Source: an uncultured Acidobacteriota bacterium
GTDB lineage: Bacteria > Acidobacteriota > Vicinamibacteria > Vicinamibacterales > UBA2999
Assembly (NCBI GenBank): GCA_963750995.1
Contig: CAVVST010000005.1
Coordinates: forward strand, 508,457-572,456
Direction: 5' to 3'
Length of the DNA stretch: 64,000 nt
The notes under the pieces are model-generated. The model was not told the origin of the DNA. It worked only from the letters and a program-made list of their open reading frames with translations, and did not search any database. The position numbers and the translations under genes are program-made. Of the stretch, positions 24,847 through 44,310 are shown piece by piece. Each line of letters opens with the position of its first letter. Position 1 is the first letter of the stretch.

Positions 24847-24891
24847 TGGAGGCGCCGTCCGGATTTGAACCGGAGATGGAGGTTTTGCAGA
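24847..24891 (-). repeat. partial tRNA-Cys (3' 45 nt, anticodon loop to CCA): distal att-type direct repeat
   Basis: TGGAGGCGCCGTCCGGATTTGAACCGGAGATGGAGGTTTTGCAGA is identical base for base to 44237..44281. The 5' half of a tRNA is absent, because the next bases cannot pair with the anticodon stem. Confidence 0.9.
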
Positions 24892-24976
24892 TTAAGCGGG
24901 AAAACCCAAGTTGTTGACTCGTCCTGCTTTCTGGTGTCTGCCAAACCCTCGTTTTACCCGGTGTTTGGGCGGTTGT

Positions 24977-24997
24977 GGTCCCAAATTGGTCCCAAGT
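24977..24997. repeat. island-end motif pair GGTCCCAAATTGGTCCCAAGT
   Basis: Two GGTCCCAA units 11 nt apart, 86 nt inside the distal att repeat. The reverse complement occurs at 44155..44174. Confidence 0.7.
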
Positions 24998-25092
24998 TCG
25001 CGGCTCCGTTCCCCGCACGCGATGGCGACATTTCTCAAGCTCGTTATGTGCGCGGCCTCGCTCCGGGACGACACTCGCCAGCGTTTCTACTG

Positions 25093-25207
25093 AGAGTGGG
25101 ATTCGAACTCGCAGGCCTTCTTTAGACTCTGTAAGTTACAGATTCCACAATGACACCATTGCCGTGAGTGCCAGCGACGCCGTGGCGCATTGCCCGCCAT
25201 TGCCCGC
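25093..25207. repeat. repeat family A/B, copy B (115 nt)
   Basis: See 5082..5197. It lies ~200 nt inside the island, next to the distal att repeat. Confidence 0.85.
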
Positions 25208-25279
25208 CAGCTAACCGACCTAAGCCGTTCCGATGATCGCGCTGAATATCTGGGCCGGGCCGCTTCGCGCGTGTACGGA

Positions 25280-25482
25280 CAGCATCAAAAACGCGTTCTT
25301 GGAACATTGCATGAGCGGCCCAAACGCCAATCACCGCCGGTGATCTACGCGGCGATGTATCCGGGAACTTCGTGCCAGGAGAGCCCACCTTGTGATGCGT
25401 CTGCCACCGTGACGGCTGGGTTGAAATGCGCGCCGGAAATCGTCCCAAAAGTGGACGATCAGTGCGACGAGCGCCGCCTCGG
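25280..25482 (-). pseudogene. aquaporin/MIP channel, N-terminal fragment with stop and frameshifts
   Basis: Reverse strand reads ..AALVALIVHF / ISGAHFNPAVTVADASQGGLSWHEVPGYIAA(TAG)ITGG / VIGVWAAHAMF. It carries the NPA box and a TAG where Gln is expected. Confidence 0.5.
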
Positions 25483-25779
25483 GACCGGCGGCGGGATTTT
25501 GCGAGTCCCATACTGCTTTTCACGGGCTGGTCCCACACGCGCGAAAGCGGCGGCGTCTCAGCCGCCTTCATTTTGCTGAATTCCGCCTCAGGACTTGCCG
25601 GCAACCTTGCCAGCGTAGAGAGCTTGCCAGCGGCGTTGGTTTGATGGGTGGGAGCGGTGGTGATGAGTGGATTTATGGGGAGTCGTCTTGGGAGTCGTCG
25701 CGTGCAGCGGCTCACCTTTCGGCGCATCCTCGCGGTGGTGCTCGTGGTTGCCCGAGTTAAGCTCCCGGTTGAGGGTTAG
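25478..25779 (+). pseudogene. TauE/SafE-type sulfite exporter, C-terminal fragment, frameshifted
   Basis: LGTGGGI / PILLFTGWSHTRESGGVSAAFILLNSASGLAGNL / VGAVVMSGFMGSRLGSRRVQRLTFRRILAVVLVVARVKL, in three frames. Confidence 0.45.
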
Positions 25780-25786
25780 TCGCCGC

Positions 25787-42286: not shown

Positions 42287-42382
42287 TTCAGTCGAGCGCT
42301 TTCGCCACGCAGGGTAGGTAGGTCTACCGATGCGCAGGTCTCGGTCGGGTGCGATGCTTCCTCAACGAAAGGAGGCAGAGCC

Positions 42383-42840
42383 ATGAGAGTCGAACAGAGT
42401 GCGATTATCCACCGCTCGCCCGACGAGGTCTTTACATTCCTCGAGAATCGAGCGAATGACACAGCGTGGATGACGTCGGTCATGCAATCGGAGTGGCTCG
42501 ACTCCGGCGGCACGCCTCGTGTAGGACGCCGGGGACGGATGGTTATCAGAATCCTCCGTCGACGGATGAAATTCCTCGCCGAAGTGACGGACTACGTTCC
42601 GGGCCGTCGGATCGCACATCGCACCGTCGAAGGGCCACTCCCCCTCACCACGGCGTGCACCTGCGAGCCGGCCGACACGGCTGTCTCGCCACCGTCGTCG
42701 GCGAAGTCCATCCAATTCCGGGCGGGTGGGCCGGCAGGCTGGGGGGGCCATTTGTCGGACGTATCATTCAGCACGGATTTAAGGGCGACCTTGCGCGGCT
42801 CAAAGCCCTGCTGGAAGCGCAGCGCGATGACGGCGAGACC
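42383..42840 (+). pseudogene. SRPBCC (START/cyclase-like) protein with one frameshift
   Basis: RBS GAAAGGAGG. MRVEQSAIIHRSPDEVFTFLENRANDTAWMTSVMQSEWL..FLAEVTDYVPGRRIAHRTVEGPLPLTTACTCEPAD / GCLATVVGEVHPIPGGWAGRLGGPFVGRIIQHGFKGDLARLKALLEAQ. Confidence 0.55.
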
Positions 42841-42864
42841 GGATCGAAGCGCATCTCGGGTCCG

Positions 42865-43504
42865 ATGCGTAATTTGCCTACCACAAGGGACTTCGGAGAT
42901 TTCTACAACGCAAGAAAAGCAGCCTCTGAGCTGCGCAGCTATCGCGACAAGGGACCGATTCCTTCGACCAAGGCGCTCATCGAGGCACTCAAGACGGAGG
43001 GCGTCGAGGGTGCGACATTGATCGACATCGGCGGAGGGGATCGGGGCGATCCAGCACGAGCTGCTGGCCGCCGGGGCAGGCCATGTGACGAGCATCGATG
43101 CTTCCGACGGATACATCCAAACGGCGCGGGAGGAAAGCGGACGTCGAAGCCTCACCGGCCGGGTCTCCTACCATCACGGTGACTTCGTGGAGCTTGCTGA
43201 AACCATTCCTCCGGCCGACATCGTCACGCTCGACCGGGTTATCAACGTTTATCCCGATTGGAAGCAGCTGATCCGCACTTCGGCGGCACGGGCTCGCCGC
43301 TTGTACGGGCTTGTTTATCCACGGGATACCCTCCCGGTCAGGATGGTGGTGAGTGTGATGAATCTTGTCGTGTGGCGTGGACCCGTTCACGCCTCTGTGC
43401 GCTCGCCGGAGGTGATCGAGAGGCTGACACGTGAGGCAGGTCTCGTTCGGTGCTTCTCGAAGACGACAGGACCCTGGCAGGTTGCGGTCTTCCGCCGCCA
43501 CTGA
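42865..43504 (+). pseudogene. class I SAM methyltransferase, one frameshift; paralogue of 36469..37116; same frame as the SRPBCC tail, so possibly a fusion
   Basis: MRNLPTTRDFGDFYNARKAASELRSYRDKGPIPSTKALIEALK..ATLIDIGGG / IGAIQHELLAAGAGHVTSIDASDGYIQTAREES..GDFVELAETIPPADIVTLDRVINVYPDWKQLI..RRLYGLVYPRDTLPVRMVVSVMNLV.. Confidence 0.6.
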
Positions 43505-44154
43505 TGCCACGAACGCTCCGGCTTATTGAGCGGGGAGAAGTACGGAATCGTATCTCTACGCAAGCCCAAGACGTGTCGCTTCGACACCCAGTTTGAACCG
43601 AAGACCATCGCCGTCGAATGTCGGTTCTTTGGAGAGCAGCGTAAGGGCAGCCAGCTGCGACGGGTCGAATACCCGCTCAACGAAGGTTCCGGTCTGCAGA
43701 CCCCCGCCGATCACTCGCACGGCGCCGACCAGGCGCGTGGCGATGACAACTTCAACGGGCTCAAGGCAGAAGCGTCCCTCGGAGCACCCAGGAGCGTGAC
43801 TCCTGGATTCAGATCGTCGAGTTCAATTGGTACGCATGATGGCGAGCCGCCGCCATTCTACTGCTAGCTCCCGATTCGTGGCGGCGTGCCATTGCGTGTC
43901 TCGTACCCCTGCCGCTGCCGAGCTGAGTAGCACCACGCTTCGCGCCACACTAGATCTCGCGCGTCATCTCGATCGGTGCGTGCGCTTTGCCATACTGGCG
44001 GTGTCTGCTCACCAGCCGACCGACGAGCCTGGTAGAACCAGGACTCATCCAATGGTTCGCAGAAGATGTGGAGGTTCTTTGAACCTCTGACTATCTCGTG
44101 GGAAACGTCAAAATCCGACCATTATTCACGTTAGTGGGCGGTTACAACGGGCGC

Positions 44155-44174
44155 ACTTGGGACCAATTGGGACC
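44155..44174. repeat. island-end motif pair ACTTGGGACCAATTGGGACC (inverted partner of 24977..24997)
   Basis: The reverse complement GGTCCCAATTGGTCCCAAGT matches the distal motif except for one A. It lies 63 nt from the tRNA-Cys 3' end. Confidence 0.7.
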
Positions 44175-44236
44175 AGAATCGAGTCCGCAGATATCGCCGA
44201 CGCCGAGAGTAATAAGCGATTTTCACAGAGGAAAAT

Positions 44237-44310
44237 TGGAGGCGCCGTCCGGATTTGAACCGGAGATGGAGGTTTTGCAGACCTCTGCCTTACCACTTGG
44301 CGACGGCGCC
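44237..44310 (-). tRNA. tRNA-Cys (GCA), CCA encoded
   Basis: The reverse complement GGCGCCGTCGCCAAGTGGTAAGGCAGAGGTCTGCAAAACCTCCATCTCCGGTTCAAATCCGGACGGCGCCTCCA folds as a cloverleaf: acceptor GGCGCCG/CGGCGCC, anticodon stem GAGGT/ACCTC, loop CTGCAAA, T arm TCCGG-TTCAAAT-CCGGA. Confidence 0.95.

Follow-up and report, generated by a model that had tools for sequence, protein, structure and literature searches.

In the islands described by Islander, an intact tRNA gene (tDNA) and a displaced fragment of it mark the island ends, and an anticodon-centred class of element-borne attachment sites (attP) is established (PMC4383910). Decayed relatives of mobile elements are known from the Streptococcus families of ICEs (integrative and conjugative elements) and IMEs (integrative and mobilizable elements), where cis-mobilizable elements (CIMEs) keep the attachment sites attL and attR and have lost the genes for integration and transfer (PMC5704250; ICEberg 2.0, PMC6323972). 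In Mx8-type systems, attP overlaps the 3' end of the integrase gene (int), according to Tojo et al. (1996) as cited in PMC4383910. The locus considered here lies in a 64,000-nt stretch (the window) of contig CAVVST010000005.1 from an uncultured Vicinamibacterales bacterium of the phylum Acidobacteriota, in which the segment 24892-44236 separates an intact tRNA-Cys gene from a displaced copy of the 3' part of that gene (coordinates are those of the window; + and - give the strand). This segment is probably an island that arose by site-specific integration into the 3' part of tRNA-Cys and has since lost its integrase.

The tRNA-Cys repeat and its counterparts in related genomes

Two tRNA genes are called in the window, an intact tRNA-Cys(GCA) at 44237-44310 (-; ARAGORN; Rfam RF00005, 63.7 bits), which would be the regenerated integration target, and its upstream neighbour in the same tRNA cluster, tRNA-Gly(GCC) at 44343-44417 (-; ARAGORN and Rfam). 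The 3' 45 nt of tRNA-Cys (44237-44281, -), corresponding to the attL core, recur base for base and in the same orientation at 24847-24891 (-), corresponding to the attR core, and the perfect direct repeat reported in a preliminary description of this DNA is thus confirmed by sequence comparison, ARAGORN and Rfam. With its first base at tRNA position 30, where the 5' arm of the anticodon stem ends, the repeat covers the anticodon loop through CCA. The displaced fragment lies downstream of the tRNA 3' end in direct orientation and, as had been stated, is devoid of a 5' half, the adjoining bases not continuing the tRNA. Neither ARAGORN nor Rfam makes a call at this place, which speaks against the concern that the left copy might belong to a second functional tRNA-like gene. 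An additional GAAAA(T) match that had been pointed out just outside the repeat is real but trivial and is offset by one base. When a 27-mer of the repeat was searched with up to three mismatches, the window matched at these two places only, and none of 100 shuffled sequences matched. Similarly, an ungapped scan of both strands of the whole window found no third, degenerate att copy that would be the sign of a tandem array, the next-best match to the repeat reaching 25 of 45 positions, which equals the shuffled-sequence maximum.

Relatives of the locus were taken from the contexts of the closest homologues, labelled Acidobacteria, of the DUF481 protein encoded at 44501-45406, which together with tRNA-Gly forms the core right flank of the island. 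A scan of a genome collection with the same protein returned 11 distant loci of at most 61% identity, the neighbourhood falling in metagenome-assembled genomes (MAGs) of the Vicinamibacterales, across which the linkage of tRNA-Gly, tRNA-Cys and the DUF481 gene is kept. The tRNA-Cys sequence is identical in four related contigs (L001-L004) and in a more distant MAG (L008). In the contig L001, the flank protein is 100% identical and the homology takes in the rightmost 6.8 kb or more of the island, up to the contig end. In L002, L003 and L004, with flank proteins of 87, 88 and 83% identity, synteny with the window breaks 7-9 nt beyond the tRNA 3' end, and the DNA beyond this point differs in each of them. 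The DNA of L002 is unrelated to the island, L003 carries a perfect 46-nt copy of the 3' part of the tRNA 4.0 kb away, and L004 a perfect 44-nt copy 8.6 kb away; in L008, a perfect 44-nt copy is found at a distance of 1.34 kb. In L003, L004 and L008, the DNA enclosed by the 44-46-nt duplication is unrelated. The duplications and the varied inserts in these relatives therefore identify tRNA-Cys as a recurrent integration site.

The insert of L004 contains a 467-codon open reading frame (ORF) for a PF00589 tyrosine integrase (8344-9747, +) that runs into tRNA-Cys (9632-9705, -), reading through the att core and the whole tRNA gene on the opposite strand. Because the ORF spans the core and the tRNA, integration alters the C-terminus of the integrase, as in IntP of Mx8. 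The same element encodes HTH_17 and HTH_36 proteins, a DnaC-like ATPase and a small terminase subunit, and is satellite-like. The insert of L008, a 1.34-kb minimal 'island' (7008-8463), consists of only the C-terminal half of a near-identical integrase, and a further locus (L009) has a full-length integrase copy 1.1 kb from tRNA-Cys. The tRNA-Cys site is thus occupied by elements in all states of decay.

Four contigs of short-read GTDB MAGs (L010, L011, L012 and L013) end at, or within ~300 nt of, tRNA-Cys or tRNA-Gly, which is consistent with strain-variable DNA downstream of tRNA-Cys in many Vicinamibacterales populations. In L003, a 94-nt 'tRNA-Cys' called by ARAGORN at 932-1025 (-) lies inside a DabA gene, does not resemble the genuine tRNA-Cys and was probably called falsely. 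The window and L003 also share a 330-nt segment with 92% identity (window 795-1127, L003 6290-6623), which includes a 98-aa ORF without a family; the L003 copy lies inside the tRNA-Cys island and the window copy 24 kb to the left of attR.

Integrase clade, attP layout and the presumed loss of int

Homologues of the L004 integrase number more than 5000 at E<=1e-20, the named ones being site-specific integrases of Acidobacteria; no prior description of this hotspot or of this integrase clade in Acidobacteria was found in the searchable literature. An alignment-based scan of IMG/VR returned 80 viral loci, of which 14, all among the 19 closest (43-60% identity), carry a tRNA-Cys fragment. This fragment measures 44-49 nt, is 88-95% identical to the window core, extends from the tRNA 3' end to the anticodon loop and is located ~60-400 nt downstream of int, on contigs of 9.8-44 kb (most of them 25-44 kb). 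As these viral contigs have the fragment without a full tRNA, the fragments are attP sites. In the window, L003, L004, L008 and all 14 viral attP sites, identity sets in at tRNA position 30-31, where the anticodon loop has its 5' edge. More distant members of the integrase family adjoin tRNA-Lys, tRNA-Leu, tRNA-Met or tRNA-Pro, and viral scans that used the exact 44-nt core, the arm motif of the window (see below) or a single integrase sequence gave no matches.

Nine of the viral attP sites, examined in detail, have a regular layout. On the P side, two tandem, element-specific 8-9-mers with a spacing of 11-12 nt are placed within the 3' end of int at a distance of 61-77 nt from the core, and the P' arm carries two or three further copies in direct orientation at +120 to +165 nt beyond the core. 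The motif is GGGGACAA in L023, GGGTAGCAC in L024, L025 and L027, AGCCACAC in L033 and L036, CAGCCAGT in L035 and AATGGGCA in L032. That the motif varies from phage to phage among L023-L036 while its positions are fixed suggests that the arm sites co-vary with the arm-binding domain of the integrase. A similar repeat, GGGGACA(A), occurs in the integrated elements of L004 and L008, first at 57-70 nt from the tRNA and a second time at 116-132 nt inside attR. By analogy with lambda-type systems, this is the layout expected for arm-type integrase-binding sites, and such a function is presumed for the repeats.

Comparable repeats are present in the window, where the 8-mer GGTCCCAA occurs in four copies within 64 kb, all of them at the inner ends of the island. 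A tandem pair in CTTGGGACCAATTGGGACCAG (44156-44176, +) lies 61-71 nt from the tRNA 3' end, with TTGGGACCA at -69/-79, which is the canonical P-arm distance of the integrase-bearing relatives and the phage attP sites. The second tandem pair, GGTCCCAAATTGGTCCCAAG (24977-24996, +), is inverted with respect to the P arm and located at +85/+96 inside the attR core. Judged by their likeness to these systems, the pairs are candidate arm-type integrase-binding sites of the P and P' arms, respectively. The same P-side motif (CTTGGGACCACTTAGGACCAG) is found at the same distance in L002 and L018, likewise without an integrase; L018, the sole match of a metagenome scan with the arm motif plus core, is an L002-like contig whose end is reached 600 nt from the tRNA. 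An inverted arm copy is also present in L008, at +98. In addition, a core-proximal block just inside attR, TTGTTGACTCGTCCTGCTTTCTGGT (24911-24935, +), is common to the window and the otherwise unrelated 4-kb island of L003: a blastn match of 84% between window 24843-24935 and L003 5359-5451 includes these 25 nt, whereas the sequence outside the att copies is not conserved between the two. No element that combines this arm motif with an integrase was found in any of the metagenome and viral collections scanned.

An integrase is missing from the window by every search applied. Pfam found none in ~40 ORFs, and stop-masked six-frame Pfam searches of the two island ends (42900-44240 and 24885-25800, E<=1), where a remnant had been thought worth looking for, were equally negative. 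A family profile hidden Markov model (HMM) built from 120 homologues of the L004 integrase and run with --max on all six-frame fragments of the window gave a best E of 3.8, compared with 1e-205, 1e-151 and 1e-83 for the positive loci L004, L009 and L008. An nhmmer profile covering the terminal 300 nt of int scored 1e-46 with its positive control and detected nothing in the window, and no phage genes were found by PHROGs among ten unassigned ORFs or by Pfam among all larger ORFs. The earlier statement that no integrase could be found at either end is thus confirmed by five independent negative tests. An apparent integrase remnant at 44122-44310 (tblastn with the L004 integrase, E=4e-12) was rejected, as its score comes from the translated tRNA gene itself; outside the tRNA the match is ~25% identical, and a second match at 43905-44054 has E=0.6.

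The position that int occupies in the intact relatives is taken in the window by 732 nt without a recognisable gene (43505-44236), which extend from the last cargo gene to tRNA-Cys and are negative with Pfam, PHROGs, the family HMM and nhmmer. This gap holds the P-arm pair and a hairpin. The homology of the island to a cargo-bearing locus without a tRNA (L019) ends at 43499, and the last ~190 nt before the tRNA are ~70% conserved with L002 and L018. The hairpin, GGAGGTTC-TTT-GAACCTCT (44070-44088), is placed ~150 nt from the tRNA 3' end and is also found in L002, L018 and L003, where base changes preserve the stem.

Taken together, a sequence of events may be proposed in which an element-borne attP, carrying the stretch of tRNA-Cys from its anticodon loop through CCA, recombined with the 3' part of the chromosomal gene. 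The recombinase would have been a phage-type tyrosine integrase with its own arm specificity, from the clade common in Acidobacteriota and their viruses, in which int normally adjoins the tRNA and the 3' end of int would contain the P-arm binding sites. Integration would have regenerated the tRNA (attL, 44237-44281) and displaced its original 3' 45 nt to 24847-24891 (attR). The integrase and any other mobility genes would later have been lost, int presumably by deletion from the 732-nt gap beside the tRNA, leaving the two perfect cores, the P-arm 8-mer pair, the P' pair and ~19 kb of cargo, which may have arrived as, or grown inside, one element. The central proposal of the preliminary description, site-specific integration into tRNA-Cys, is supported by the duplications in relatives, the L004 and L008 integrases, the viral attP sites and the break of synteny. 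The island, which has att sites at both ends and no genes for integration or transfer, cannot excise by itself and is in this respect equivalent to a CIME.

Cargo, discreteness and competing explanations

The gene content of the island was determined by Pfam and NCBIfam scans of stop-free segments, complemented by stop-masked six-frame Pfam at both ends. The attR-proximal end holds two fragments whose coordinates are derived from positions in concatenated frames: a 40-residue MIP/aquaporin piece (~25332-25455, -; six-frame Pfam E=1.2e-6, profile positions 59-99 of 222) and the C-terminal third of a TauE protein (~25504-25762, +; six-frame Pfam E=7e-4, profile positions 152-236 of 237). They are followed by signalling cargo, which consists of an extracytoplasmic function (ECF) sigma factor of PF07638 (25787-26383, -), a Ser/Thr kinase with PD40 repeats that is split over several frames (26529-29426, +), a HAF-repeat protein (29581-30498, +; TIGR02913 repeats at 29560-30495, E=1e-14), an inverted kinase stub (30631-31020, -), an intact 980-aa Ser/Thr kinase with PD40 repeats (31118-34060, +) and a second PF07638 ECF sigma factor (34043-34636, -). 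The Pfam E-values here are 4e-57 and 4e-59 for PF07638 and 2e-48 for Pkinase, and the region 25787-34636 contains the internal paralogous repeats D1, D4 and I1.

Further to the right, Pfam identifies a beta-helix protein in two in-frame pieces (Beta_helix/NosD; 34867-35328 and 35332-35619, +), and an outer-membrane beta-barrel protein (OMP_b-brl; 35732-36331, +). The ars-like/sulfur cluster (36472-40646), several genes of which are split in the window, comprises a methyltransferase (36472-37434, -), an ArsM-like methyltransferase (37308-37922, -; NCBIfam arsenite methyltransferase, 1.6e-53), an MFS transporter (37937-39174, -), an MBL hydrolase (39209-39955, -) and an ArsR-rhodanese regulator (39987-40646, -), the latter three assigned by Pfam. 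The last genes before the 732-nt gap are an intact HD-GYP/LuxR-type gene (40745-42286, +) and a polyketide-cyclase/methyltransferase fusion that is interrupted in the window (42383-43504, +). The cargo first listed for this island, which ranged from the ECF/kinase sets to the MIP and TauE pieces, is mostly recovered by these scans. For the HD-GYP-LuxR gene, the HD-GYP part stands (HD_5 at 1e-37), whereas the GerE/LuxR domain (PF00196) was seen only in the precomputed domains of homologues, which have 514 aa and align end to end with 84% identity at 100% coverage.

Part of this cargo is found elsewhere. The HD-GYP and cyclase-methyltransferase pair is also present in four loci (L019-L022) with 80.6% nucleotide identity and in a different context; the L019 match covers window 40738-43499, and no tRNA is located in that locus, including 10 kb on each side. 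On the contig of P0247, for which no tRNA or integrase is called, the order is methyltransferases, rhodanese-MBL, MFS, ArsM-like, ArsR-rhodanese, HD-GYP, cyclase-methyltransferase and kinase-PD40. More broadly, the neighbourhood 36472-43504 recurs without a tRNA on the P0247 and P0257 contigs and in L019-L022, often beside an ECF sigma factor and a Ser/Thr kinase and sometimes with the MBL fused to a rhodanese. Homologues of this neighbourhood below ~65% identity that have a source name come from Acidimicrobiia.

Several observations weigh against the proposed integration. Across the 19.3 kb, genes of phages or for an integrase, an excisionase, replication or conjugation are missing, and the mobility of the island DNA is therefore deduced only from its ends. 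Of these ends, the attR junction rests on one assembly, L001 confirming the attL side only, and in the P' pair of the window the inverted orientation and the shorter distance to the core are atypical when set against the phage attP sites. A strict empty site, in which the left flank of the window is joined to tRNA-Cys, was found in none of the relatives, because no relative shares that flank; tblastx of the left flanks of the relatives against the window gave noise only, and look-ups of identical proteins with those of the flank and the island yielded no more than a 1.3-kb contig. In the empty-site comparison proposed at the outset, content differs among L002-L004 and synteny breaks at the tRNA 3' end, but the joined configuration itself was not found. 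A comparison of composition with the core had also been suggested. Tetranucleotide composition and the G+C content of third codon positions (GC3) change sharply at the tRNA, whereas no change occurs at attR (24.85 kb), the region from 14.6 to 24.8 kb also being island-like; therefore, the variable region may be larger or composite. Finally, the cargo block from the ars-like cluster to the cyclase-methyltransferase gene is conserved in contigs where neither tRNA-Cys nor an integrase lies within 10 kb, and the interior therefore need not be the DNA that was originally integrated.

The region 14600-24846 deserves a separate description. It begins after a 600-nt non-coding stretch (14.6-15.2 kb) and has island-like tetranucleotides and a low GC3. 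Among its products are a Ysc84-domain protein, an AI-2E transporter, a methyltransferase and a C70 peptidase-like protein. The region may represent an older island, added by accretion, of which no att site survives.

The most serious alternative to the integration of one element is that a small phage- or satellite-like element left the scar and that, after deletion of its mobility genes, homologous recombination, duplication and insertion brought modules of the flexible genome together between the att sites, in which case the att pair would bound a hotspot and not one transferred unit. The recurrence of the cargo modules in the same order on contigs without tRNA-Cys or int favours such a history, as do the internal duplications D1, D4 and I1 with the inverted kinase stub, the continuous composition across attR and the relatives that show every stage of decay. 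Furthermore, the identity between window 37464-55177 and L001 1-17876 is mosaic, with ~96% at 37.4-41 kb, 99.7% at 41-46 kb and ~90-92% at 46-55 kb. The 99.7% block takes in the island end, both tRNAs and the DUF481 gene as well as the ORF that follows, and its contrast with the adjacent core of ~91% suggests homologous exchange. Either two lineages have recently exchanged DNA across attL by homologous recombination, or the mosaic is that of a chimeric metagenome consensus, which would count against this reading. A long residence with heavy remodelling is also difficult to reconcile with the perfection of both cores and the retention of both arm-like pairs, and PHROGs reveals no trace of genes from the phage or satellite that is supposed to have integrated first. 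Homologous recombination after integration may have assembled or exchanged the interior, and this composite origin is a possible, although clearly less probable, account of the locus.

It was also considered that the island is truly eroding, with most of its genes turned into pseudogenes by frameshifts. The preliminary description had concluded that most genes are frameshifted and the element therefore in decay, and the tblastn frame map does show that many cargo genes of the window can be read through only by switching frame (three times in the 750-nt MBL gene, for example), whereas the ORFs of the right flank are long and intact. However, in L001, which is 95% identical overall, the MFS, MBL, ArsR-rhodanese and cyclase-methyltransferase genes are intact, while L001 is broken where the window is intact, namely in the HD-GYP gene (three indels), an aminotransferase gene and CysRS. 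The cyclase-methyltransferase gene of the window, the L019 orthologue of which is intact, acquires an in-frame stop from two compensating 1-nt indels (42676 and 43039), in a region (41-46 kb) where substitutions between the window and L001 amount to only ~0.1-0.5%. Moreover, one-base indels between the two contigs coincide with GTAC 8 times, compared with 1.1 expected, a 7-fold enrichment that affects 5 of the 34 GTAC sites and looks like a motif-linked, possibly methylation-linked, long-read basecalling error. The indel sites include window positions 40115, 40985, 42116, 42184 and 43550; others are 39333, 39697 and 39823.

Outside the island, a gene for a qNOR-type nitric-oxide reductase (NorB cytochrome-c-like domain and COX1; 11963-14242, +) is likewise split over at least three frames. 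Most of the frameshifts are thus probably assembly noise, present in both contigs and not specific to the island, so that the inference of erosion is not upheld and a wholesale decay of the cargo is unlikely. The truncations of TauE, MIP and the kinase stub are genuine, and therefore some real decay at the attR-proximal end is likely. More generally, islands described as 'frameshifted and eroding' in long-read metagenome assemblies can be assembly artefacts and call for caution.

A further alternative is that the island is still mobile in trans, in which case its attL, attR and arm sites would serve a cognate tRNA-Cys integrase encoded at another place in the genome, an infecting phage or an element that integrates in tandem. 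In agreement with this, the two 45-nt cores are perfect even though attR is under no tRNA constraint, tandem 8-mer pairs are kept on both arms in positions that match functional attP sites, and L002 and L018 keep the P-arm motif without int as well. The integrases of this clade are also very abundant in Acidobacteriota and their viruses, and the mobilisation of CIMEs by accretion is documented in streptococci (PMC5704250). On the other hand, the scans of all collections revealed no integrase with this arm motif, the orientation of the P' arm is atypical, and the view is limited to 64 kb of the genome. Mobility in trans is rather improbable. In its most specific form, the island would be a 'CIME' that parasitises phage integrases, its functional attL and attR allowing excision and re-integration in trans by the tRNA-Cys-specific integrase of a co-resident or infecting acidobacterial phage or of a tandem element. 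Although this form is decidedly doubtful, if true, it would mean that ECF-sigma/kinase and ars-like modules are shuttled among Vicinamibacterales-like soil bacteria, and that the element-specific arm 8-mers decide which integrase moves which island.

Finally, the absence of any integration scar, with the repeat being due to chance, to an assembly artefact or to a second tRNA-like gene, could appeal to an attR junction seen in a single assembly, but it is hardly credible given the 0 of 100 shuffles that match, the lack of any tRNA or tRNA-like call at 24847, the identical duplications in three other contigs from different projects and the use of the same segment as a phage attP.

Comparison with described elements

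To conclude, the probable integration of an element into tRNA-Cys and subsequent loss of int make the island a known kind of element, an integrase-less, CIME-like tDNA island, and the biology involved is ordinary. It nevertheless offers a well-anchored example from a poorly studied and mostly uncultured soil phylum, pins down a tRNA-Cys integration hotspot in Vicinamibacterales-like Acidobacteriota and connects it with a large clade of tyrosine integrases of the phage type. In addition, a regular attP layout comes to light, in which a core from the anticodon loop to CCA is accompanied by element-specific tandem 8-9-mers at fixed distances. In metagenomes, this layout could help to map islands and to match each integrase to its site.

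With the tDNA islands of Islander, the locus shares the intact tRNA-Cys, the direct 45-nt 3' fragment and its start at the anticodon loop (PMC4383910), as well as a site occupancy that varies among relatives and a shift of composition at the tRNA. It differs in that integrase, mobility and phage genes are missing, and Islander would filter it as not 'putatively active'. The structural, replication and lysis genes by which a prophage or phage remnant would be recognised were likewise not found by PHROGs on 10 unassigned ORFs or by Pfam.

The resemblance to CIMEs lies in the two att sites that flank the island, the loss of the integration and transfer genes, the use of the same site by related intact elements and the occurrence of intact, truncated and int-less versions in neighbouring genomes. 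Unlike the CIMEs of Firmicutes, the island resides in an acidobacterial host, no conjugation remnants were found, and its intact relatives are phage- or satellite-like rather than ICEs or IMEs; because of the nature of these relatives, descent from a conjugative element is unlikely.

Finally, the tandem short repeats at a spacing of one helical turn on both sides of the core would be a feature shared with attP sites of the lambda and Mx8 types. The window keeps candidate repeats only, and its P' pair departs from that of the phage relatives in orientation and distance from the core. The intact relatives are closer to the Mx8 arrangement, having the P-arm repeats and the core inside or after the 3' end of int, as is most evident in L004, where the int ORF continues through the tRNA.

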